Below are positions 40,176 through 50,249 of a stretch of DNA of 64,000 nucleotides, in pieces; position 1 is the stretch's first letter, and each line of letters opens with the position of its first letter. Below the pieces are notes generated by a model. The model did not search any database, had not been told where the DNA came from, and saw only the letters and a program-made list of their open reading frames with translations. Made by a program: the position numbers and the translations under genes. The stretch lies in the NCBI GenBank assembly GCA_049582105.1, contig JBAUTG010000066.1:5661-69660 (forward strand), in the 5' to 3' direction. Source of the DNA: Candidatus Dormiibacterota bacterium (GTDB lineage: Bacteria > Chloroflexota > Dormibacteria > Aeolococcales > Aeolococcaceae).

Positions 40176-42047
40176 TCAGGAGGACTCGGTGGGAATCCAG
40201 ACGGTCATGGATCCAGGCAATCGGTTGGCCCACAGGAAATAGGGGATGGCGGTGAGCGCGGTCGGGCTGTGGTGGTCGCCCACCTCCTCCCGCCGCCGAT
40301 ACAGGACGTCCCAGCCGATGGACGATCGCCTCAGGCCGTTTCCCACGACCTCAATTGCCCCACCGAGCAGGTCCTCACGCCATCGCGCCCGCAGCTCCGT
40401 GGCCGGGTCGATCGCGATCGTGGCGGCGTCCGCCTCATCCGGCTGATCGCAGCCCTCGATGCAGTAGACGAGTGGTCCTCGCACGATCGCCACTGACTCA
40501 CGTGCGGACTCAACCAGAGGATTCGCTGCCGTGAGCGTCACGGGCATCTGCATGGTGAGCACGACCACATCACCGACCTGCCACCGGCGGCCGACGGTCG
40601 CGTAGCCGTTCTCTCTCGCGTGGTCAACCGAGGACCCGTTGACCGAAACCGTCGGGTGCCGGCACCAGCCGGGGAGACGGAGGGACAGATCACGTGCCTC
40701 GCCGTGGGCGGCGAGCACCTCGACGGTGACGGTTCCGTCCCACGGGTAGTCCGTGCGGATCTCAAGGGACAGACCCTCGTACGTCATCGTGCCCGACGCG
40801 TATTGATGTATCTGGATCCCGTTGTCGTTGCCGGTCGCGACGTAATGGGCGAGCGATGCGATGAGTCGCATGACGTTCGGCGGGCAGCATGCGCACTCGT
40901 ACCACGGTGCCCGTACCGTTTCCCCCCGGCTCGACAGCGGATTCTCATAGAAGAACGTGGTCCCGTCGACCCCGATCCCGCTCAGCACCGCGTTGTAGAG
41001 CGTCCACTCGATCAGGTCCGCGTACCTCGAATCACCCGTGGCGAGCAGCATCCGCCAGTTCCAGAACACACTGCCGATGGCAGCGCACGTCTCCGCATAT
41101 GCGGTCGCCGACGGAAGCTCGTACGGCTCTCCGAAGCTCTCGCTGAACTGCCGTGAGCCGATCGCGCCCGTGATGTACAGCTTGTGCCGGACCATGTCCT
41201 CCCACTGCCCTTGCGCAGAGGCGAGTAGCGCTTCGTCGCCGGTCTCGAGCGCGACGTCGACGATGCCGCTCAGCAGGTACGCGGCCCGGACCGCGTGGCC
41301 TTCGATGGTTGTCGCTTCGCGAATTGGGACGCGATCCTGGTAGTACGAGGGATCGTAGAAGCGCGCCGTGCTCAGCAGCCCGCTGCCCCGATGATCGAGG
41401 AAGAACGTGGCGAGCTCCAGGGCGGTCGCGTCTCCAGTGTGCCGGTACAGCTCGACGAGCGCGCTCTCGACCTCGGGGTGCCCGGGCACGCCGATGCGCC
41501 TGTCCCTGCCGAACGTCGCCTGGACGCACTGCACCGCGTGCTCGGCGACATGCAACAACCGGTCGCCGCCCGTCGCACGCGCCATCGCGATCCCCGCCTG
41601 CACCAGGTGGCCGATGCAGTACAGCTCGTGGCCGTGCGGCAGGTCCGTCCATCGCTCGGTGGGATGGACCACCTGCCAGTACGAGTTGATGTAGCCGTCG
41701 GGCATCTGCGCAGCGGCGACGATGTCGGTCAGCGTGTCGACCCGGTCTTGCAATGCCGGGTCGGGCCGGCGTCCGATTTCCCATGCCGCAGCTTCGAGCC
41801 ACTTGTACACGTCCGAGTCCATGAAGACGGGCCCGCGGAACGCACCGCCGCCGGCCGCCGCGTTGCGGAGGTTGTCGAGATTGCCCGCCTGCTCGAGCAT
41901 CGCGTGCGCGTGGTCGATCGAGCGCTCGCGGTTGATCCGCTGCCGCTGCTCCCAGAAGCCGTCGCCGAACGCAAACGCATTGGTGGGCAGAGTCCGAAGC
42001 CGGGCACGTGGGCTCGAGGACACGTCAACCGGGCCGGGACTATTCAT
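40176..42047 (-). CDS. glycoside hydrolase family 127 (DUF1680, beta-L-arabinofuranosidase-like)
   Basis: 623 aa with DUF1680-like strings (VFMDSDVYKWLEA, YAETCAAIGSVFW, YECACCPPN Cys cluster). Confidence 0.8.
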   Translation of the reverse strand: MNSPGPVDVSSSPRARLRTLPTNAFAFGDGFWEQRQRINRERSIDHAHAMLEQAGNLDNLRNAAAGGGAFRGPVFMDSDVYKWLEAAAWEIGRRPDPALQDRVDTLTDIVAAAQMPDGYINSYWQVVHPTERWTDLPHGHELYCIGHLVQAGIAMARATGGDRLLHVAEHAVQCVQATFGRDRRIGVPGHPEVESALVELYRHTGDATALELATFFLDHRGSGLLSTARFYDPSYYQDRVPIREATTIEGHAVRAAYLLSGIVDVALETGDEALLASAQGQWEDMVRHKLYITGAIGSRQFSESFGEPYELPSATAYAETCAAIGSVFWNWRMLLATGDSRYADLIEWTLYNAVLSGIGVDGTTFFYENPLSSRGETVRAPWYECACCPPNVMRLIASLAHYVATGNDNGIQIHQYASGTMTYEGLSLEIRTDYPWDGTVTVEVLAAHGEARDLSLRLPGWCRHPTVSVNGSSVDHARENGYATVGRRWQVGDVVVLTMQMPVTLTAANPLVESARESVAIVRGPLVYCIEGCDQPDEADAATIAIDPATELRARWREDLLGGAIEVVGNGLRRSSIGWDVLYRRREEVGDHHSPTALTAIPYFLWANRLPGSMTVWIPTESS

Positions 42048-42149
42048 CCATGCAGGGGCCTTGCGACGCGGGGGACGCGCCGGTTGATCTGGACCACGAT
42101 GCGCATCCTCCCAGAGAACGACCCCGACGACGAGCTCGTGAGCGACTGA

Positions 42150-42941
42150 CTACCGGACCCACGTTCCGGCGCCGGCCATCGCGCTGAAAAGAGGCCGCAT
42201 TGCACGTCCGTCGGCGACACAGGCGGCGCCGACCCCGCGTATGCGCGCGTCGGCGACGGCGCGGAGCTTGACGCGCGCACGGCCGCCGATGCGCGGGATC
42301 AACGTCTCCGCTTCATGCGGCGTGACACGCCCGATCAACGTTGTCTCGTCCCCGGGCTCGCGAAGCAGTCCCGGCGTGTCGGCGAAGATCATCAGACGCG
42401 ATGCACCAAGCGCGACGGCGATCTCCGCCGCGAGCCGGTCGCCATCGACGTTGATCGCCGTCCCGTCCTCGGCAGCGATCGGTGGGCTCATCACGGGCGT
42501 CATGCCGCGGGAGAGCAGGGAGCGCAGGAGCGCGCCATCGACGTGGTCGATGCTGCCGACGTGATTGCCGTGCAGCATCATGGTCCGGCCGTCACGCCGG
42601 ATGCGGAGGTCGGGGCGGCGCCTCCCACGCACGACGCCACCGTCGAGGCCGCAGAGACCGAAGGCGTCGACCCCGAGCTGACGCAGCCGTTCGACGATCC
42701 GCTTGTTCGCCTTGCCCGCGTATGCCATGAGGAAGTGATCCATGGTCGTCGCGTCCGTGTATCGACTCACATCTCCGTGTGGGGACTCGACCATCCGCGG
42801 CGGCGCGCCGAGTCGCGTCGAGAGGTCATCGAGATCGCGACTTGCACCGTGCACGAGCACCACCTGCTCCGTGGTCGCGGCGACGTCCTCGAGAAGGGGA
42901 TCGAGGTGACGGACACTGCCACCGATCTTCACGACGATCAT
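42150..42941 (-). CDS. lysZ: [LysW]-aminoadipate kinase (acetylglutamate-kinase family)
   Basis: MIVVKIGGS N-terminus and amino-acid-kinase fold. ATG 42941 shares one nucleotide with the lysY stop. Confidence 0.85.
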   Translation of the reverse strand: MIVVKIGGSVRHLDPLLEDVAATTEQVVLVHGASRDLDDLSTRLGAPPRMVESPHGDVSRYTDATTMDHFLMAYAGKANKRIVERLRQLGVDAFGLCGLDGGVVRGRRRPDLRIRRDGRTMMLHGNHVGSIDHVDGALLRSLLSRGMTPVMSPPIAAEDGTAINVDGDRLAAEIAVALGASRLMIFADTPGLLREPGDETTLIGRVTPHEAETLIPRIGGRARVKLRAVADARIRGVGAACVADGRAMRPLFSAMAGAGTWVR

Positions 42942-43987
42942 CAGATCGGATACAGCCCCCCGAATTCGAGCCCGAGCGTCTCCGGGAACCCGTGGCGGAC
43001 GTTGCAGGCCTGGACGGCCTGCCCCGCCGATCCCTTGCACAGGTTGTCGAGCGCCGAGGTCACGACCACGCGGCGCGAGTGGGGATCCCGTTCGAAGCCG
43101 ACGTCGCAGTAGTTGGTTCCGCTCAGCAGCTTTGGACTCGGGGAACGGAAGAGACCGGTGCGTGACTTCACAATTCGCACGAAGGGCTCTGTCGTGTATC
43201 GGGATCGATAGAGCTGCCAGATGTCGCGATCGTCGAGGTCGGCGGCGAGAAACGCGTGCGCGGTGACCAGCACCCCGCGTACCGCCTCAACCGCGGTGGC
43301 CGAAAAAGCAAGCTGCGGTCCGCTGTCGCCGAGGTGAAGCTCCTGGACGATCTCCGCAGTGTGCCGGTGCCCAGTCGGTGCGTAGGAGCGCAGCTCGCCG
43401 CTCCGGTGCGCATGATGCGAGGCGTCGCCCACCTGCGCGCCACCTGCGGAGGAGCCGACCTTCGCCTCAAGAACGATCGGCATCGACGTGTCGAGGACAC
43501 CTGCGCACACGAGTGGGGCGAGTCCGAGGATCGAGGCGGTCGCGAGGCATCCGCCTGCGGCGATCAGTGATGCGCCGGCGATCTCCGCGCGATGCAGCTC
43601 AGCAAGACCGTAGACCGCGCTTTCCAACGATGCGGGAGCCGGGTGTGTCCATCCGTACCAGCGTGGATAGTCCCGCGCGTCCCGTAACCTGAAGTCGGCA
43701 CCAAGGTCGACCCAGACCGGTGCGGCGGCGCGCAGCTGCTCGATATGCCTGCTCGACTCCCCGTGGCTCAGCGCGGAGAACACCACGTCCACAGACTCGA
43801 GCGTCTCTCGCGACGAGAAGCGCAGCTCCGTCCGTCCGCGCAGGGGAGGGTTGACCGATGCGACCGGTTTGCCGGCGAGTCGTTCAGAGGTGACCTGCAC
43901 GAGCGCGATCTCGGGATGCCCGGCGAGGATCCGGAGCAGCTCGCCACCCGCGTAGCCGGCGCCTCCGACGACCGCGGCGCGAATCAT
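42941..43987 (-). CDS. lysY: [LysW]-aminoadipyl-phosphate reductase (ArgC family)
   Basis: MIRAAVVGGAGYAGGELLR and a catalytic-Cys region (AAGGCLATA). It overlaps the lysK stop. Confidence 0.85.
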   Translation of the reverse strand: MIRAAVVGGAGYAGGELLRILAGHPEIALVQVTSERLAGKPVASVNPPLRGRTELRFSSRETLESVDVVFSALSHGESSRHIEQLRAAAPVWVDLGADFRLRDARDYPRWYGWTHPAPASLESAVYGLAELHRAEIAGASLIAAGGCLATASILGLAPLVCAGVLDTSMPIVLEAKVGSSAGGAQVGDASHHAHRSGELRSYAPTGHRHTAEIVQELHLGDSGPQLAFSATAVEAVRGVLVTAHAFLAADLDDRDIWQLYRSRYTTEPFVRIVKSRTGLFRSPSPKLLSGTNYCDVGFERDPHSRRVVVTSALDNLCKGSAGQAVQACNVRHGFPETLGLEFGGLYPI

Positions 43988-45048
43988 GTCTCGCGCAGCG
44001 CAACGTCGAGGACGTCGACTGCGCGCTCCAGCTCGGCGACCGACACGCATTCGTGAGGGGTGTGGTCAAGGGTCGCATCGCCCGGCCCGTAGGCAAGCGC
44101 AGGGCATCCCCATGCCGGAACGAGGATGTTCATATCCGACGTGCCCGTCTTCACCTTGAATCGTGGCGCCCCGCCGGCATCGCGAATGGCGCGGATGCAG
44201 GCGCGCGCAAGGCGGCTGTTGCGATCGGTTCGGACGCCGGGATCGCCACCGGATACGGTCACTGCCACGCCGGTATGCGATCGCGCGAGACCGACCAGCG
44301 CATCGATGTCGCACACCGGCGGCGTGCGGATCCCGATGTCGACCTCGGCGGTGTCGACCAGGCCGTCGGTCTCCGAGTGAAGGCGCAGCACGCGCATGTC
44401 GATGCGATCGAACACGCCGGCTTCACCGTTGGTCGCATTGGCGAAGTCCTGCAGCACTCGCACGAGATCGACACAGCGATCAGATGCGCTTGGCGCCCTT
44501 CCCGCGCCGTGTGTCTGCGGTTGCGACACCGCCATGTGCATGCGGAGGCTGCCCTTGTAGCCGATCGTCACCGCGTCCCATCCACTCGGCTCGAGGATGA
44601 TCAGCCCCTCCGGGGCCTGCATCGATGTGGCCAGGAAGCGCGCTCCGCGCGATGTCGACTCCTCCTCGACTGCACCCACAACGACGAACCGACGCCCGGC
44701 GTCGCGCGGCTGGCGGCTGACCGCGGCGATGGCCGCGGACAGCGGTCCCTTCGCGTCAACGGCACCGCGTCCGTGGAGCATCCCTCCGTCGCGACGGACA
44801 TCGATGTGGCCGGCGACGGTGTCGAGGTGCCCGACGAGCGCGAGAGTCTCCGGCCCGCTGCCCCATCCGGCGATCACGTTGCCCGCGTCGTCGAGCTCCG
44901 CGTCGAAACCCGCGGCGTCCAGGCGCGTCACAAGCATCTCCGCGAGGAGACCCTCGTTGCCGCTGACGCTCGGTACCGCGAGCATTGCGGTGAGCAACTC
45001 CACAACGTCAACGGCTGTGGCCGAGCGCGGGTGTGTCGCCGTGATCAT
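43984..45048 (-). CDS. lysK: [LysW]-lysine hydrolase (M20 peptidase, ArgE/LysK type)
   Basis: LLTAMLAVPSVSGNE ... LVGHLDTV M20 motifs. ATG 45048 lies 1 nt after the lysX stop. Confidence 0.8.
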   Translation of the reverse strand: MITATHPRSATAVDVVELLTAMLAVPSVSGNEGLLAEMLVTRLDAAGFDAELDDAGNVIAGWGSGPETLALVGHLDTVAGHIDVRRDGGMLHGRGAVDAKGPLSAAIAAVSRQPRDAGRRFVVVGAVEEESTSRGARFLATSMQAPEGLIILEPSGWDAVTIGYKGSLRMHMAVSQPQTHGAGRAPSASDRCVDLVRVLQDFANATNGEAGVFDRIDMRVLRLHSETDGLVDTAEVDIGIRTPPVCDIDALVGLARSHTGVAVTVSGGDPGVRTDRNSRLARACIRAIRDAGGAPRFKVKTGTSDMNILVPAWGCPALAYGPGDATLDHTPHECVSVAELERAVDVLDVALRET

Positions 45049-45049
45049 G

Positions 45050-45922
45050 TCAGGCACCAACTCCCGCGAAGGCGCCACGCGCGACGTCACGCACGTGGCC
45101 GGCCACCCGGCCGGGAATGTCCACGCCCGTGACATCGATGGAGTTGCGGAACTCCATGGTGGCGTTCACCTCGCTCACGAGCAGGCGCGCTCCGTCCTCG
45201 AGCAGGTCGATCGCGAGCACGCCACCACCGACGGCCGATGCCGCGCGGAGACACAGGTCGCGGAGCGCACCATCGACGGTGCAGTTGCGTGCGCTCGCTC
45301 CGCGCGCGGTGTTGGTGACCCAGTGCCCCGACTCGCGGTAGATCGCGCAGATCACGTCGTCCCCGACGACGAAGGCGCGGATGTCGCGCCCCGGCTTGTC
45401 GACGTGGCGCTGCAGGTAGAAGATCGAGTGCTCGGGGCCGCCGAGCACGGCCTTGTGCTCGAAGAGCGCCTCGGCGGCATCGCGATCGTTGATTCGCGCG
45501 AGGAGCCGTCCCCACGATCCGGTCACCGGCTTGAGCACGACCGGGTACCCCAGGTCCTCCGCGGCGCGTCGTGCGGCATCGGGGCTGAAGGCGATTGCGG
45601 TCGCCGGCGTCGGAATCCCGGCTGCGTCGAGGAGCGCGGACGTGTCGAGCTTGCTGGCGCACACGGCCGCGACCGCGTGATGATTGACGGTGGGAACACC
45701 CCACGACTCGAGTACGCGCAGGAGAGCGAGGCCGCGTGTCTGCGAGAGGCTGCGCTCCAGCACGACGTCCCATCTCCGGTTCGGGCGGTCGAGCGTGAGC
45801 GTCAACTCGCGATCGTCGACGACCTCGACCTCGAGACCCCGGTGTTCGAGTGCGTCTCGGAGGAGCTTCTCCTCGACGCGCATCCGGGAGCAGAGGAGAC
45901 CGACTCGCAGGTTGCTACTCAC
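45050..45922 (-). CDS. lysX: alpha-aminoadipate--LysW ligase (RimK-type ATP-grasp)
   Basis: RVGLLCSRMRVEEKLL N-terminus and ATP-grasp motifs. GTG 45922 lies inside the lysW tail (GGTGAGTAG). Confidence 0.85.
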   Translation of the reverse strand: MSSNLRVGLLCSRMRVEEKLLRDALEHRGLEVEVVDDRELTLTLDRPNRRWDVVLERSLSQTRGLALLRVLESWGVPTVNHHAVAAVCASKLDTSALLDAAGIPTPATAIAFSPDAARRAAEDLGYPVVLKPVTGSWGRLLARINDRDAAEALFEHKAVLGGPEHSIFYLQRHVDKPGRDIRAFVVGDDVICAIYRESGHWVTNTARGASARNCTVDGALRDLCLRAASAVGGGVLAIDLLEDGARLLVSEVNATMEFRNSIDVTGVDIPGRVAGHVRDVARGAFAGVGA

Positions 45923-46073
45923 CCCAGTCCGCTTCCTCTGGCGGTGCGAGCACGAAGCGAGACGGGTCAAGCCCGATCACCTCGAGCTCCGCATTGCACT
46001 CGGCGCAGGTCACCACCTCACCGCGTTCAACGCCGTCATGGAGTGCCACCTCGGCATTGCACTCAGGACACAT
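45915..46073 (-). CDS. lysW: amino-group carrier protein LysW (52 aa)
   Basis: My translation of the minus strand is [52 protein letters not shown]. It has a CxxC...CxxC zinc ribbon and the hallmark acidic ExDWGE C-terminus. It is below the 60-aa track cutoff. It overlaps the hacB end by 11 nt and the lysX start by 8 nt. Confidence 0.85.
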   Translation of the reverse strand: MCPECNAEVALHDGVERGEVVTCAECNAELEVIGLDPSRFVLAPPEEADWGE

Positions 46074-46572
46074 GCTGCCTCTCCTCGAACGCGGCCCAGC
46101 CGCCGTTGCTGATCAGGTCCAACAGGGAGCCCGATTCGATGATGCGAAGCGCCACACCTGACGGCGGTTCGCCGTGGAGCACGCCGTTCGGCCCGGTGAT
46201 CTCGCCGCTCAGCGTGTCCACCGTCACGTGATCACCCTCTCGCAGGGCTCGATATGCCTCCTGACAGCGGATCACCGGAAGGCCGATGTTCACGGCGTTG
46301 CGATAGAAGATGCGCGAGAAGCCTGCAGCGATCACGGCCGCGACACCGTTCCGCTTGATTGCAAGCGGCGCATGCTCGCGAGAGCTGCCACAGCCGAAGT
46401 TGCGTCCCGCAACGATCACATCACCGGGCTGGACCTCTTCGACGAAATCCGGTCGAGCCTCGATGAGGCACGCGCGTCGCAGCGCATCAGGATCGGTGGT
46501 CACGTTGTAGCGACCCGGCATGATCGCGTCGGTGCTGATGCCGTCACCGAGCAGGAAGACACGTCCGCTCAT
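46063..46572 (-). CDS. hacB: homoaconitase small subunit (LeuD-like)
   Basis: [11 protein letters not shown] and [13 protein letters not shown] motifs; 169 aa. ATGA overlap with the hacA stop. Confidence 0.85.
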
Positions 46573-47807
46573 GCCACCGCCTCCAGGGACGATGGATCGG
46601 TGATCGCGCCGGCCACCGCGGAGGCGGCGGCCACCGCCGGCGATGCGAGATAGATCATCGCGTCGGGACTCCCCATGCGGCCCGGGTAGTTGCGGTTGCT
46701 CGTTGAGAGCACCCGCTCGCCGGGACCCATCACCCCGTGTTGCCGGCCGAGGCACGGCCCGCACCCCGCGTTGAGCACGAGCGCGCCGGCCAGTGCGAAG
46801 GTCTCGATGTAGCCTGCCGCGAGCGCGTCGAGGTACACGCCACGCGACGCGGGGACGACGATGGTTCGGGTGCGGGGATGGACCGTGCGCCCAGCGAGGA
46901 TTCCCGCGGCCAGCGCGAGATCGCTGAGCCTGCCATTGGTGCAACTCCCGATGAAGACCTCGTCGAGCGGCGTTCCGGAGACGTCGTCGATGTCGTGGAC
47001 GTTGTCGATGCTCGGATACATCGCGATCTGCGGCCGGAGCGAGCCGGCGTCGATCAGCAGCGTCTGCGCGTACTCGGGCCGGACGGGATGCAGGTCGACA
47101 TCCTCACCGCCCGTGTGTGCCCGCGTCACGTCGTCGGGTTCGACGAGCCCGGCCTTGGCACCGAAGTCGGTACTCAGGTTGCAGAGCGTCAGGCGCTCGT
47201 CCACGCTCATCGCTCGCACCGCTTCGCCGGTCCACTCCACCGCGCAGTAGTCGGCACCGTCAGCGCCGAGCTGGCGGATCGCGTGGAGTGCGAGATCCTT
47301 GGCGTACACGCCGTCCGGCAACGCACCGCACACGCCGATGCGAATTGTCTCCGGGATGCGGAACCACGTCTTCCCGGTGGCAAACACCACGCCGATGTCC
47401 GTCGAGCCAAGACCGGTGGCGAAGCACCCGAGCCCGCCGTACGTCGTGCTGTGCGAATCCGCTCCGACCACGATGCCCCCGGGGCGCGCGAATCCGCGGT
47501 CGACGATCACCTGGTGGCAGATGCCCTCAGCGAACAGGTTCGTGATCGCATGCTCGACGCAGAACTCGCGAATGATCCGATGCAGTTCCGCTGCCGCAAC
47601 CGTGTTGGCGGGCATGACATGGTCGAAGCTGAAGACCACGCGGCTTGCGTCCCAGAGGGGCGCGTTGAGCTGCCGGAAGGCGTCGATGGCGAGCGGTCCG
47701 GTCACGTCGTGCGCAAGCGCCACATCGACGCCTGCGACCACGGTGTCGCCGGCGTGAACGGCATGCCCAAGGCGGCGGCTGAAGATCTCCTCGGTCAGGG
47801 TTCCCAT
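46569..47807 (-). CDS. hacA: homoaconitase large subunit (LeuC-like aconitase-family dehydratase)
   Basis: GADSHSTTYG, GSCTNGR and CGPCLG Fe-S ligand motifs; 412 aa. Confidence 0.9.
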   Translation of the reverse strand: MGTLTEEIFSRRLGHAVHAGDTVVAGVDVALAHDVTGPLAIDAFRQLNAPLWDASRVVFSFDHVMPANTVAAAELHRIIREFCVEHAITNLFAEGICHQVIVDRGFARPGGIVVGADSHSTTYGGLGCFATGLGSTDIGVVFATGKTWFRIPETIRIGVCGALPDGVYAKDLALHAIRQLGADGADYCAVEWTGEAVRAMSVDERLTLCNLSTDFGAKAGLVEPDDVTRAHTGGEDVDLHPVRPEYAQTLLIDAGSLRPQIAMYPSIDNVHDIDDVSGTPLDEVFIGSCTNGRLSDLALAAGILAGRTVHPRTRTIVVPASRGVYLDALAAGYIETFALAGALVLNAGCGPCLGRQHGVMGPGERVLSTSNRNYPGRMGSPDAMIYLASPAVAAASAVAGAITDPSSLEAVA

Positions 47808-47817
47808 CGCGCAGCTC

Positions 47818-48954
47818 CTAGCCCTGAGCCCAGCTGACGATCAACGCATCGAGATCGGCGACATCCAGCGGACCCTCGTCACCGCGCCGCTTCACCTCTG
47901 CTGTGAGTCCTCGCAGTCGTTCGTCATCAAGGTCGACGCCGAGCCTTGTCGCCCGGTCGCCCACGGCGTGGCGGCCCGTGAGACGGTGGCCGGTGAGGAT
48001 GCTCCGTTCCCGGCCGAACCGGGCCGGCTCGAGGATCTCGTAGGACCCGGGGTCGGCGAGCACCGCCTTGGTGTGCATCCCCGCCTTGTGGTGGAACGCG
48101 GTCGGTGCGGTGACCGCCGCGTTGAACGGGATCGCGACACCGAGGATCTCGGCCAGCATCGCATCGAGCTCGGGCAGCATCTCCAGCCGGTAGTGGTCGA
48201 CCAGCTCGGGTTGCAGCGTGTGCAGCCGCGCCATCATCGAGGAGAGCGGGACGATGCCGTTGCGCTCCCCGATGCCGAGAACGGTGGTGTCGATGTGCGT
48301 CGCACCCGCCTCGAGGGCTGCGAGTGCGTTCGCGACGGCGCAGCCGGTGTCGTCGTGGGCGTGGAACTCGATGTCGCAACCCACGTGGCGGCGGATGAGC
48401 GAGACGAGGTCGTGCACCTGGGATGGCGTTGCCACGCCGACGGTGTCCGCGAGCCCGACCCGATCGGCCCCAGCGGCGTCGATCGCCTGATAGATCCGGA
48501 CGAGATCCGCAGGGTCGGAGCGGAAGGAGTCCTCGGTGCTGAAACGTGCCTCGAGCCCGGCTCGCCGGATCTCGGAGACGACCACGGTGCCCGACTCGAT
48601 GATCTCGTCGATGCTCATGCCGTGTGAAGCCGGTCGCAGTCGCGAGGAGGTGGCGATGAGCACGTCGACGCCGTCGACACCGGTATCGATCGCGAGGCGC
48701 GCATCCTCGAGACTGCAGCGGACGTGTGTGAGCAGGCGGAACGTGCGCTCGGTCCGTGCGATGCGCCGGAGGTCCGCCTCCGATTGCGGCGACGCGAGCG
48801 GTGAGGTGAGCTCCATGTAGTCGACGCCGAAGCGGTCGAGTGCGGCCGCGATCGCGAGCTTCTGCTCGATCGTGAAATGAGCGAGGGCGAACTGCTCGCC
48901 TTCACGAAGCGTGCTGTCGATGAGGCGAAAGGACTTGATGTTCATGAGGTCCAT
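47818..48954 (-). CDS. hcs: homocitrate synthase
   Basis: MNIKSFRLIDSTLREGEQF N-terminus and HAHDDTGCAVAN metal motif. The start is ATG 48954 or 48945. The listed 5' extension to 49152 runs through the leader region. Confidence 0.9.
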   Translation of the reverse strand: MDLMNIKSFRLIDSTLREGEQFALAHFTIEQKLAIAAALDRFGVDYMELTSPLASPQSEADLRRIARTERTFRLLTHVRCSLEDARLAIDTGVDGVDVLIATSSRLRPASHGMSIDEIIESGTVVVSEIRRAGLEARFSTEDSFRSDPADLVRIYQAIDAAGADRVGLADTVGVATPSQVHDLVSLIRRHVGCDIEFHAHDDTGCAVANALAALEAGATHIDTTVLGIGERNGIVPLSSMMARLHTLQPELVDHYRLEMLPELDAMLAEILGVAIPFNAAVTAPTAFHHKAGMHTKAVLADPGSYEILEPARFGRERSILTGHRLTGRHAVGDRATRLGVDLDDERLRGLTAEVKRRGDEGPLDVADLDALIVSWAQG

Positions 48955-48968
48955 CTGTGCTGTTGGGT

Positions 48969-49001
48969 AAAAAGAAGAGCCCCTTCGAGGAAGGGGCTCT
49001 T
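48969..49001 (-). terminator. intrinsic terminator/attenuator hairpin immediately upstream of hcs
   Basis: On the minus-sense RNA: AAGAGCCCCUUC-CUC-GAAGGGGCUCUU (a perfect 12-bp stem), then CUUUUU, ending 14 nt before ATG 48954. Confidence 0.5.
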
Positions 49002-49034
49002 TTCGGAATCTGATCCGGGTCTGTGCGTACGCCG

Positions 49035-49109
49035 TCAGGCTTTGCGTGCGCGAAGGAACCCACTCCTCGAGAGCGAGCGGGTTTTTTTGGCGATGCGTAC
49101 CGAGGTCAC
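49035..49109 (-). CDS. candidate 24-aa lysine leader peptide MTSVRIAKKTRSLSRSGFLRARKA
   Basis: GTG 49109 to TGA 49035. The tandem AAA-AAA Lys codons come from the A7 run (49082-49088). There is no SD; TTGACG-18-TACGCT (49148-49119) would make the transcript nearly leaderless. Confidence 0.35.
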   Translation of the reverse strand: MTSVRIAKKTRSLSRSGFLRARKA

Positions 49110-49146
49110 GACCGGCGCAGCGTAGCAGCGTCCCGTTGCTCGCGTC

Positions 49147-49177
49147 AACCACGAGCCGCGGATGACCGCTCGTGGTT
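49147..49177. promoter_or_regulatory. perfect 10-bp inverted repeat (candidate operator or RNA hairpin) between the lys and his operons
   Basis: AACCACGAGC (49147-49156), 11 nt, GCTCGTGGTT (49168-49177). It ends 13 nt before hisC ATG 49191, and its left arm overlaps by 2 nt the putative lys -35 box (49143-49148). Confidence 0.4.
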
Positions 49178-49190
49178 CACGATATGACCC

Positions 49191-50249
49191 ATGTCGAGAT
49201 TCCGGCGCGACGCGCTCGGCCCACGGTTCGGATACACGCCCGGGGAGCAACCGTCCGACGTTGCGGCCTGGCTCAAGCTGAACAGCAACGAATCCCCCCT
49301 GCCGCCATCGCCGCATGTCGCCACGGCTGTCGCGGCCGCGGTCGCCGACCTTGCTCGCTATCCGGACCCAGTCGCCGAACCGTTGCGAAGTGCGATCGCA
49401 CGCCATCACGGCGTGCTGCCGGGCCAGGTCTTTGTCGCCAACGGCGCCGACCAGGTGCTCGACTGCCTCTATCGCGCCTACGCCTCGCCCGGTGACAGCG
49501 TGGCGCGCACCGACCCCGGTTACTCGCTCCTTCCCGTGCTTGCGACGCTCTTCTCGGCGCATGACGTCGCGGTGCCGTTGCCCCCGGACGGTGCTCTGCC
49601 GCTCGAGTTCGCGATCGCGCCGGCAGTGCTTCGGGTCGTTGTGAATCCGAACTCTCCGACAGGTACCTGGATCGAACCCGCGGTGCTCGAGACACAGCTG
49701 GCAGGAGCGAGCGGCGTCGTCGCGATCGACGAGGCGTACTGCGATTTCGCTCCGGCGTCCTGCGTCGGTCTGCTCGGCTCGCACCCGAACTGGCTGATCG
49801 TACGGACGCTCTCGAAGGCACATGCGCTCGCGGGTCTTCGCGTCGGATACGCGCTCGGTGCCTCCGACCTGATCGAGGATCTCAATGCGGTCCGCGATTC
49901 GTACCCGGTCGATCGACTGGCCATCGCAGGTGGAGTGGCCGCGCTCGAGGATGAGGCGCACCATGCGCTGATCGTCGAGACCGTGCTGGGCGGGCGCGAG
50001 CGCCTCACCGATGCCCTGACAGGTCTCGGCTGGGATGTCGTGCCGTCGAAGGCCAACTTCATCCTCGCGTCCCCTCCGCCGTCAATGCGGGCCGCGACGG
50101 TCGCGCAGCAGCTTCGTGAGAGACGGATCCTGGTCCGCCATTTCGATACGCCCGGCCTGGCCGAACGATTGCGCATCACCATCGGTGACAGCGATGCGGT
50201 CGACCGAGTCCTCGCAGCCATCAGGGAAATCGAGACCGGGAAATCCTGA
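49191..50249 (+). CDS. hisC: histidinol-phosphate aminotransferase
   Basis: Class-II aminotransferase pattern: LNSNESP, VVNPNSPTG, TLSKAHALAGLRVGY (PLP Lys). Confidence 0.9.
   Translation: MSRFRRDALGPRFGYTPGEQPSDVAAWLKLNSNESPLPPSPHVATAVAAAVADLARYPDPVAEPLRSAIARHHGVLPGQVFVANGADQVLDCLYRAYASPGDSVARTDPGYSLLPVLATLFSAHDVAVPLPPDGALPLEFAIAPAVLRVVVNPNSPTGTWIEPAVLETQLAGASGVVAIDEAYCDFAPASCVGLLGSHPNWLIVRTLSKAHALAGLRVGYALGASDLIEDLNAVRDSYPVDRLAIAGGVAALEDEAHHALIVETVLGGRERLTDALTGLGWDVVPSKANFILASPPPSMRAATVAQQLRERRILVRHFDTPGLAERLRITIGDSDAVDRVLAAIREIETGKS

Follow-up and report, generated by a model that had tools for sequence, protein, structure and literature searches.

What controls the transcription of the lysine operon in a Candidatus Dormiibacterota bacterium? 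The operon lies on the minus strand of a 64,000-nucleotide stretch of contig JBAUTG010000066.1 (the whole stretch is hereafter called the “window”), and is headed by hcs, the homocitrate synthase gene. The hisC gene and the remaining his operon are divergently encoded on the plus strand. We read the hisC/hcs gap on the minus strand, where an earlier reading of the same DNA (hereafter called the “original prediction”) had placed a candidate lysine-sensing attenuator. Our analyses indicate that this gap quite likely encodes a ribosome-mediated leader-peptide transcription attenuator, which would make the expression of hcs-hacAB-lysWXKYZ depend on the supply of charged tRNA-Lys. The leader possesses a short 5′ open reading frame (ORF) with its own start codon, codons for the end product of the pathway next to an RNA segment 1, and an intrinsic terminator. 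Moreover, it can form an antiterminator that is exclusive of the terminator, and a 1:2 hairpin that a stalled ribosome could disrupt, although the register of this hairpin is not conserved.

All of the elements proposed in the original prediction were found at their places on the minus strand. The promoter (TTGACG, an 18-nt spacer, and TACGCT) and the 24-codon ORF starting with GTG are both present in the window, and the promoter, as well as the start and the stop of the ORF, is kept across the 47 distinct leaders described below. The GTG start codon of the window leader is not accompanied by a Shine-Dalgarno sequence. The ORF contains tandem lysine codons, AAA-AAA, within a run of seven adenosines (the A7 run). 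This run is the longest A/T homopolymer in the window, in which only two runs of at least six nucleotides exist. The preference of the flanking genes for AAG, which had been noticed by eye, was borne out by a count: AAA and AAG occur at a ratio of 4:54 in 14 flanking genes, while all three lysine codons of the leader are AAA. The leader peptide has no Pfam match at E values up to 10. We therefore treated the likeness of its RSGF(L)RARM stretch to the HGFRARM motif of ribosomal protein L34 as a matter of chance.

Is this arrangement conserved among the relatives? A scan of the genome collection with the homocitrate synthase (HCS) protein returned 80 loci. The closest of these, with 85-90% HCS identity, belong to metagenome-assembled genomes labelled Dormibacteraeota, Dormiibacterota or Dormibacteria, which places the window in that lineage of Chloroflexota. 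The region upstream of hcs aligns with the window over its full length in 26 genome loci. A scan of metagenome contigs with the leader motif revealed 24 further copies, all 24 directly upstream of hcs. The metagenome scan found the motif before no other gene, and hence there is no evidence for a wider regulon. The 26 genome loci, the window and the 24 metagenome contigs together provided the 47 distinct leaders. As the original prediction would have it, the Lys-Lys (KK) ORF, the terminator and the antiterminator are all kept upstream of hcs in the relatives.

The start codon occupies the same alignment column in the 47 leaders (GTG in 34, ATG in 13), and follows the −10 hexamer by 9 nt in 39 leaders or by 10 nt in the other 8. 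With this spacing, the start codon should coincide with the transcription start or lie only a few bases from it. The leader transcript is therefore probably leaderless, or nearly so, judging from the promoter spacing. The stop codon is TGA in 45 leaders and TAG in two; in one locus (L048), TGA is replaced by TAG at the same codon. The peptide consists of 25 amino acids in 42 of the 47 leaders, and the window differs by an in-frame deletion of 3 nt. Likewise, the indels within the ORF are in frame in both the window and L025. The sequence GCY-AAA-AAA exists in 47 of 47 leaders: the six adenosines are invariant columns, and the preceding alanine codon, GCC or GCT, varies only synonymously. These coding signs (ATG or GTG at the start, TGA or TAG at the end, in-frame indels and the synonymous alanine codon) are modest but consistent. 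After KK, the residues vary freely (T/A, R/V/H, S/P, R/C, K/M), but segment 2 does not change at the nucleotide level, and thus the constraint on this part acts on the RNA, not on the peptide. In eight clean comparisons with close relatives, the leader is 73-80% identical to that of the window, as compared to 54-65% for the third codon positions of hcs.

Next, we investigated the structures that the leader RNA can form. The minimum-energy fold of the minus-sense RNA has two main elements, an extended 1:2 hairpin and the terminator. The CCCGCUC/GAGUGGG hairpin with its G-U pair, proposed in the original prediction, is present, and the energy-minimized fold extends its pairing to 11 pairs (49083-49057). 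The proposed 12-bp terminator followed by CUUUUU was recovered independently by a consensus scan, which found 3 terminator-like sites in 3 kb as compared to 0.9 expected. The alternative 2:3 pairing also exists, but its size had been understated: 14 of 15 positions can pair, rather than 9 of 10. In this antiterminator, UCGAGGAG-U-GGGUUC (49070-49056) pairs with GAGCCC-C-UUCCUCGA (48999-48985). The duplex has a predicted energy of −23.9 kcal/mol, as compared to a mean of −13.0 kcal/mol (sd 2.9) for shuffles of the upstream 100 nt, of which only 1 in 1000 was as good. It engages 10 of the 12 nucleotides of the terminator 5′ arm, the terminator loop, and the first 2 nt of the 3′ arm. Therefore, the antiterminator and the terminator are mutually exclusive. 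The region fold z-scores of the minus and plus strands are close (−3.07 and −2.94, respectively), and do not separate the strands. We assigned the structures to the minus-sense RNA because of the gene orientation, the T-run and the conserved G-U pairs, which would be A-C mismatches in the plus sense. Another window hairpin, GCG.ACGC...GCGU.CGC (columns 65-92 of alignment A2), is 52.6% paired in the family and thus not conserved, and was dropped from the model.

We then counted the base pairs in an alignment of 28 sequences, including the more distant L021, L022, L023 and L025. For the terminator, 98.8% of the cells are paired, and most pairs never vary. The antiterminator is paired in 93.8% of the cells, as compared to 54-71% in controls slid out of register. 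Its compensatory changes occur at two pairs, with A-U replaced by G-C in three sequences and U-A by C-G in two, and all 28 sequences retain its two G-U pairs. The antiterminator duplex also beats its shuffles in the leaders of L001, L003, L021, L022, L023 and L025, with z-scores of −2.1 to −3.8. In the register of the window, the 1:2 hairpin is paired in 80% of the cells, and its two central pairs are broken in most relatives. The hairpin of most relatives adopts another register, CUCGCUCC-CGA-GGAGUGGG. A local hairpin that sequesters GGAGUGGG, with energies of −7.7 to −15 kcal/mol, exists in all relatives but L021, and begins within one ribosome footprint of the KK codons. In L021, the local hairpin reaches only −4.6 kcal/mol, and a longer-range stem is used. 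Across independent sub-lineages, the partner of the terminator arm always begins 14-18 nt after the first AAA codon. In L022 (2814-3000) and L023 (2900-3000), the attenuator lies about 100-190 nt farther from hcs. The inserted DNA in L022 is a series of recurring G/C-rich palindromes (GCGGGGG...CCCCCGC), and calls to mind REP-like intergenic repeats.

How could a ribosome throw this switch? In our model, the ribosome footprint was blocked around the second AAA codon, and the transcript was truncated before the terminator 3′ arm and then folded. With the footprint imposed, as the original prediction had suggested, the 2:3 helix lies within the minimum-energy fold of the window transcript. With the footprint at the lysine codon, the antiterminator likewise enters the minimum-energy fold of all 13 family members folded and of both distant variants (L022 and L023). 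The 1:2 / 2:3 / 3:4 layout of the original prediction thus gains support from the conservation, the pairing potentials, the geometry and the footprint folds.

From these elements, we propose the following mechanism. Transcription would start about 7-9 nt after TACGCT, so that the 5′ end of the mRNA coincides with the GTG of the 24-codon ORF or slightly precedes it, and a ribosome would translate the ORF as the RNA polymerase advances. When Lys-tRNA is scarce, the ribosome would stall with one of the rare AAA codons (49088-49083) in its A site. The stalled footprint would cover segment 1 (49083-49071) and leave segment 2 (49070-49056) free. Once segment 3 (48999-48985) is made, segment 2 would pair with it to form the 14-pair antiterminator, and with 10 of the 12 nucleotides of the terminator 5′ arm and the loop thus occupied, the polymerase would read into hcs. 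When lysine is plentiful, the ribosome would proceed to the TGA codon (49037-49035), and the 1:2 hairpin would re-form behind it. The ribosome inside the would-be 2:3 loop may also hinder the formation of the antiterminator helix. The 12-bp terminator would then form, and transcription would stop at the T-run (48974-48969). The transcription start, the translation of the ORF, the stalling, the termination and the response to lysine are what we infer. The features of the locus are collected below.

Features of the lysine leader and hcs in the window, in the order of the minus-sense transcript
Feature	Position	Strand	Basis or remark
−35 hexamer TTGACG	49143..49148	−	Read directly; TTGAC[G/A] in 47/47 distinct leaders
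−10 hexamer TACGCT, 18-nt spacer after −35	49119..49124	−	Read directly; conserved as TA[C/G]GCT-like
Leader ORF MTSVRIAKKTRSLSRSGFLRARKA*, 24 codons + stop	49035..49109	−	GTG 49109 to TGA 49037-49035
Tandem Lys codons AAA-AAA (putative regulatory codons)	49083..49088	−	A49082 completes the A7 run (49082-49088)
Hairpin 1:2 (putative anti-antiterminator), 11 pairs, −14.5 kcal/mol	49057..49083	−	5′ arm begins at the last A of the KK codons
Segment 2, antiterminator 5′ strand (UCGAGGAGUGGGUUC)	49056..49070	−	CGAGGAGTGGGTT almost invariant in the family
Small hairpin CGGA-UCAGAU-UCCG within the antiterminator loop	49004..49017	−	96% of cells paired, little variation
Segment 3, antiterminator 3′ strand (GAGCCCCUUCCUCGA)	48985..48999	−	Duplex with 49070-49056
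Predicted intrinsic terminator 3:4, 12 bp, 3-nt loop, −21.0 kcal/mol	48975..49001	−	Terminator scan and fold energy
T-run CUUUUU after the terminator	48969..48974	−	Read directly; T-rich tail in all relatives
hcs (homocitrate synthase)	47818..48945	−	NCBIfam TIGR02146, 421.7 bits, exceeds the cut-off; heads the operon proposed to be regulated

Where does hcs itself begin? The original prediction correctly placed the terminator and CUUUUU before hcs, but the ATG that it took as the start of the gene did not hold. The first in-frame ATG, at 48954, is not conserved, and is ACG in the relatives. Their alignment indicates that the conserved start is probably the ATG at 48945 (MNIKSF...). About 23 nt separate the T-run from this ATG, and the only motif ahead of it is a weak one resembling GGA(A)G.

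Which signal does the leader report? The answer is suggested by the regions upstream of hcs in other Chloroflexota. In the Limnocylindria-type loci, the lysine riboswitch RF00168 was detected in five of the five loci tested, with 41-90 bits as compared to the gathering score of 30. In 17 Dormibacteria/Chloroflexota loci (L026-L042; e.g. L028:2709-2970), a T-box motif replaces the leader peptide directly upstream of hcs. The RF00230 model scores 49-93 bits (E = 1e-7 to 1e-19) in the 10 loci below E = 1e-6, just under the gathering score of 93, and L039 did not reach E = 1e-6 when searched with the same model. The specifier position of these T-boxes, GAA-AAA-G or GAAN-AAG-G, is a lysine codon in either register. 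Finally, Chloroflexus and Oscillochloris have a leaderless ORF of their own (e.g. MRNIHASTKQSKRAKKPAARSG), which starts 9 nt downstream of the −10 box TATATT and precedes a terminator. Since three unrelated lysine or tRNA-Lys sensors precede the orthologous operons, lysine is by far the most likely signal for the Dormibacteria leader, by analogy with these lineages.

Several further observations concern these other leaders. About 20 loci (L046, L049, L060-L076, L078 and L080; e.g. L060:2711-2896) share the riboswitch sequence pattern and a terminator. Several of the T-box leaders hold a variable insertion. The Lys-rich leader ORF of Chloroflexus/Oscillochloris (L051-L059, L061, L077 and L079) lies about 150-300 nt upstream of hcs and encodes KK as AAG-AAG, and a second conserved small ORF, MKQIRTTSPIAYTPRYCRPELFGSCQ..., with a GGAGG ribosome-binding site, is located between the terminator and hcs. 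In the more distant Dormibacteria L045, L047, L050 and L053, a related-looking ORF, MQMSHLIRKSMAPSFPAGKPDVPCDSAR, with single AAA codons exists about 40-190 nt upstream of hcs, together with a strong internal hairpin, GGCAC...TTCCCCGCCGGGAA...GTGCC, and a different terminator. We considered these four leaders (MQMS...K...) as possible family members, but their antiterminator is not above shuffles and they were not counted.

Several points weigh against the attenuator as proposed here. The support consists of sequence comparison and folding, for an organism known solely from metagenome-assembled genomes. The covariation is thin: the family is shallow and its key segments are near-invariant, with double-sided changes at two antiterminator pairs and none in the terminator. 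Our argument accordingly relies more on the conservation, the geometry and the energetics than on compensatory change. The window ORF starts with GTG and lacks a Shine-Dalgarno sequence, and thus its translation needs leaderless initiation, which we assume for the phylum. At 65% G+C, an open frame is uninformative, and the other two frames are also mostly open. There are only two putative regulatory codons, and a single AAA stands there in the distant L022 and L023 and in the L045/47/50/53 group. In the latter group, the antiterminator is no better than shuffles (z = −0.3 to −1.5). Moreover, the antiterminator is already the minimum-energy fold in the truncated transcripts of the window and several relatives without any ribosome. 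Default termination would therefore depend on the 1:2 hairpin forming first and on a translating ribosome, which is a kinetic assumption.

Could a different mechanism explain the same conservation? A translation-coupled attenuator that is not specific to lysine, but reports the general translation capacity or the supply of Arg, Ser or Ala, with the AAA run kept for a reason such as unstructured RNA, is unlikely. The small number of lysine codons, two here and one in the distant variants, and the richness of the leader peptide in Arg and Ser would suit such a device. In some archaea, the LysW-type clusters are used for the synthesis of arginine as well as lysine, which we also count in its favor. 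However, within the stretch of the ORF that is not involved in the RNA helices, no codon pair other than AAA-AAA is invariant, and this pair is situated exactly one footprint upstream of segment 2. Several leaders have Asn, His, Asp or Leu in place of the Arg codon two positions upstream. If the ribosome stalled at the AGG codon inside segment 2, it would block, rather than favor, the antiterminator. The placement of lysine-specific sensors at the same position in sister lineages also speaks for lysine. It is quite improbable that the unit is an independent small gene, that is, a micropeptide or small RNA gene with its own promoter and a constitutive terminator, with hcs transcribed from elsewhere. 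Although the promoter-ORF-terminator unit is complete by itself, and the conservation of the ~60 nt that follow the stop codon, with the CGGAUCAGAUUCCG hairpin among them, exceeds what an attenuator strictly needs, the peptide matches no Pfam family and is not conserved beyond KK and the RNA-constrained stretch. Its C-terminal part is even frame-shifted in the metagenome leader L084, and a 1-nt insertion shifts the stop codon in L020. The consensus scan found no promoter between the T-run and the hcs start, and the ~23 nt there leave no room for another one. Furthermore, the unit is found only before hcs, and an independent gene would leave the 14-pair complementarity to the terminator arm unexplained.

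There are two other alternatives. A leader RNA that binds a ligand, a tRNA or a protein could control the same terminator, with the ORF being incidental. The high conservation of the non-coding parts of the leader is compatible with this very improbable scheme, and the T-box specifier loop of related lineages (GCCGAAAAAGGCC) superficially resembles GCCAAAAAAGCC. On the other hand, the window has no Rfam match at the gathering threshold; at E values up to 10, only Thr_leader and two irrelevant weak matches appear. The Thr_leader match (RF00506; 21.1 bits, E = 0.14, as compared to the cut-off of 55) covers only the terminator-proximal 48970-49040. The lysine riboswitch RF00168 gave no match in the window at its gathering score, and none in 48800-49300 even at E values up to 10, although the search does detect it in the Limnocylindria loci. 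The T-box RF00230 is not matched in the window either, which lacks the T-box sequence, the GGGUGGUACC motif and the 7-nt UGGN bulge; its antiterminator is simply a helix of 8 + 6 pairs with a 1x1 mismatch in place of the bulge. Three features point to an ORF that is read: the behavior of the start codon, its fixed spacing from the promoter, and the in-frame indels. Finally, the A7 run could be a programmed frameshift or slippage site, from which a −1 shift into the hcs frame would produce an N-terminally extended HCS. The hcs frame is indeed open in the window through the whole leader, from 49152, but this explanation is hardly credible. The terminator would fall inside the coding sequence, and we rejected the fusion because, in 22 of 26 related leaders, the hcs frame meets a stop codon after the A-run and before hcs. 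The frame relation of the leader ORF to hcs also varies among 0, 1 and 2. A lysine-responsive leader-peptide attenuator thus remains the reading that we prefer.

How does this leader compare with the known systems? The lysine (alpha-aminoadipate) cluster of Thermus thermophilus reportedly possesses a leader-peptide attenuator. For the comparison, we rebuilt the T. thermophilus HCS sequence from the PDB alignment, found the Thermus and Oceanithermus homologues, and fetched their hcs loci (L106 and L108 for Thermus). Upstream of the Thermus hcs, TTGACA-N17-TATCCT is followed after 10 nt by ATG CTG GCC CGT GAG AAA AAA CTC GGT CGC CGG GGG TTA GGA TAG. The encoded peptide, MLAREKKLGRRGLG, has 14 residues; immediately upstream of hcs lies a GC-rich terminator, CCGGCCCGAGTTCGGGCCGG-TTTTC. 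The Oceanithermus leader encodes MKYREAKKLYAGGAG in the same arrangement, while the hcs of Deinococcus maricopensis has no comparable leader. Thermus resembles the window in the type of operon, the position before hcs, the AAA-AAA codons in a high-G+C genome, the leaderless-type promoter spacing and the intrinsic terminator. In contrast, its peptide has 14 codons rather than the 24-25 of the Dormibacteria leaders, and its RNA cannot be aligned with that of the window: what they share is limited to KK (AAA-AAA) and the distance between promoter and start. The predicted Thermus layout is also different. One long hairpin right after KK, with the stop codon inside, sequesters the terminator 5′ arm in a two-structure switch, whereas three hairpins (1:2 / 2:3 / 3:4) make up the layout of the window leader, whose stop codon is placed after segment 2. 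The parallel to Thermus drawn in the original prediction thus applies to the position, the codons and the terminator, but does not extend to demonstrable homology or to the layout. From the sequences, the two elements appear to be analogous, and are not demonstrably one homologous family. In some Thermus loci (L106-L108:2634-3060), a hicA/hicB-like toxin-antitoxin pair lies on the opposite strand between hcs and the homoaconitase large-subunit gene. The hcs neighborhood of L105 is different, in that LysW-like genes follow.

The logic of an ORF with end-product codons and three hairpins is the same as that of the enterobacterial trp, his, leu, thr, pheA and ilv leaders (RF00513, RF00514, RF00512, RF00506 and others). 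The energies reported for the trp leader are comparable to those of the window leader (about −21 kcal/mol for the terminator and about −14 kcal/mol for the 1:2 hairpin). Unlike these attenuators, the window leader concerns lysine, has only two putative regulatory codons, and is apparently leaderless and free of a Shine-Dalgarno sequence. Its stop codon follows segment 2, while it lies between segments 1 and 2 in the enterobacterial leaders. Lysine control in enterobacteria involves a riboswitch or LysR-type proteins. Another relevant group is the leaderless regulatory ORFs of actinobacteria, and mycobacteria are said to have such ORFs with polycysteine codons. They share with the window a short ATG or GTG ORF at the transcription start, codons for the downstream product, and action in cis. 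Their effect is reportedly exerted chiefly on translation or mRNA structure, and no canonical intrinsic terminator is known to take part, whereas the window has a strong predicted terminator and antiterminator. The RF00168 riboswitch and the RF00230 T-box of other Chloroflexota occupy the same position before the same operon, and presumably respond to the same signal as the window leader. As sensors, they are entirely unlike it, since RF00168 binds lysine directly and RF00230 uses uncharged tRNA-Lys.

The window leader is therefore a candidate for a known type of switch in a new lineage, structurally different from the Thermus leader. Lys-codon leader peptides are rare among known attenuators, and to our knowledge, Thermus provides the only experimentally characterized case. 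Our literature searches found no report of lysine leader peptides in Chloroflexota or Dormibacteria. We raise, as a proposal on which our judgment is evenly balanced, that the KK leaders of the window, Chloroflexus/Oscillochloris and Thermus/Oceanithermus represent an uncatalogued, widespread class of leaderless Lys-codon attenuators (usually with the rare AAA-AAA) controlling the alpha-aminoadipate pathway, and that the hcs 5′ region has switched repeatedly among a leader peptide, a T-box and a riboswitch within Chloroflexota. If this is true, then the hcs 5′ region is a natural test case for the mutual replacement of cis-regulatory RNA mechanisms. Orthologous hcs genes with a leader peptide, a T-box or a riboswitch in one phylum offer a clean comparative system for regulatory-RNA turnover. 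The occurrence of Lys leaders in both Dormibacteria and Chloroflexus suggests that this solution recurs wherever the alpha-aminoadipate pathway is combined with leaderless translation. Since the rare AAA is used consistently, a testable idea is that a rare codon tunes the sensitivity of the switch. The Lys leaders match no Rfam family, and a model could be built from the 47 sequences. In practical terms, Dormibacteria genomes gain the annotation of a putative regulatory element and of a small ORF that will escape gene callers. By itself, the window leader is of moderate interest; it gains interest when seen together with the other leaderless AAA-AAA lysine leaders and with the turnover of sensors upstream of hcs.

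The remaining features of the locus are as follows. The cluster headed by hcs is a complete LysW-type lysine cluster, with the order hcs-hacA-hacB-lysW-lysX-lysK-lysY-lysZ on the minus strand. The downstream genes were named by their NCBIfam models, and LysW is encoded at 45915-46073 (−). Genes for a LysJ-type aminotransferase and a homoisocitrate dehydrogenase were not seen in the operon behind the attenuator (window 40176-48954), and therefore both steps must be encoded elsewhere. The ORF next downstream of the operon (40176-42047, 623 amino acids) looks unrelated to it. No tRNA gene lies within the window. Between the hisC start (49191) and the lysine −35 hexamer, an inverted repeat, CCACGAGC-N11-GCTCGTGG (49147-49173, readable on either strand), abuts TTGACG. 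This repeat could be an operator or a hisC 5′ structure common to the divergent promoters. Its counterpart in L001, CCACGCC-N12-GGCGTGG, occupies the same place with both arms changed.

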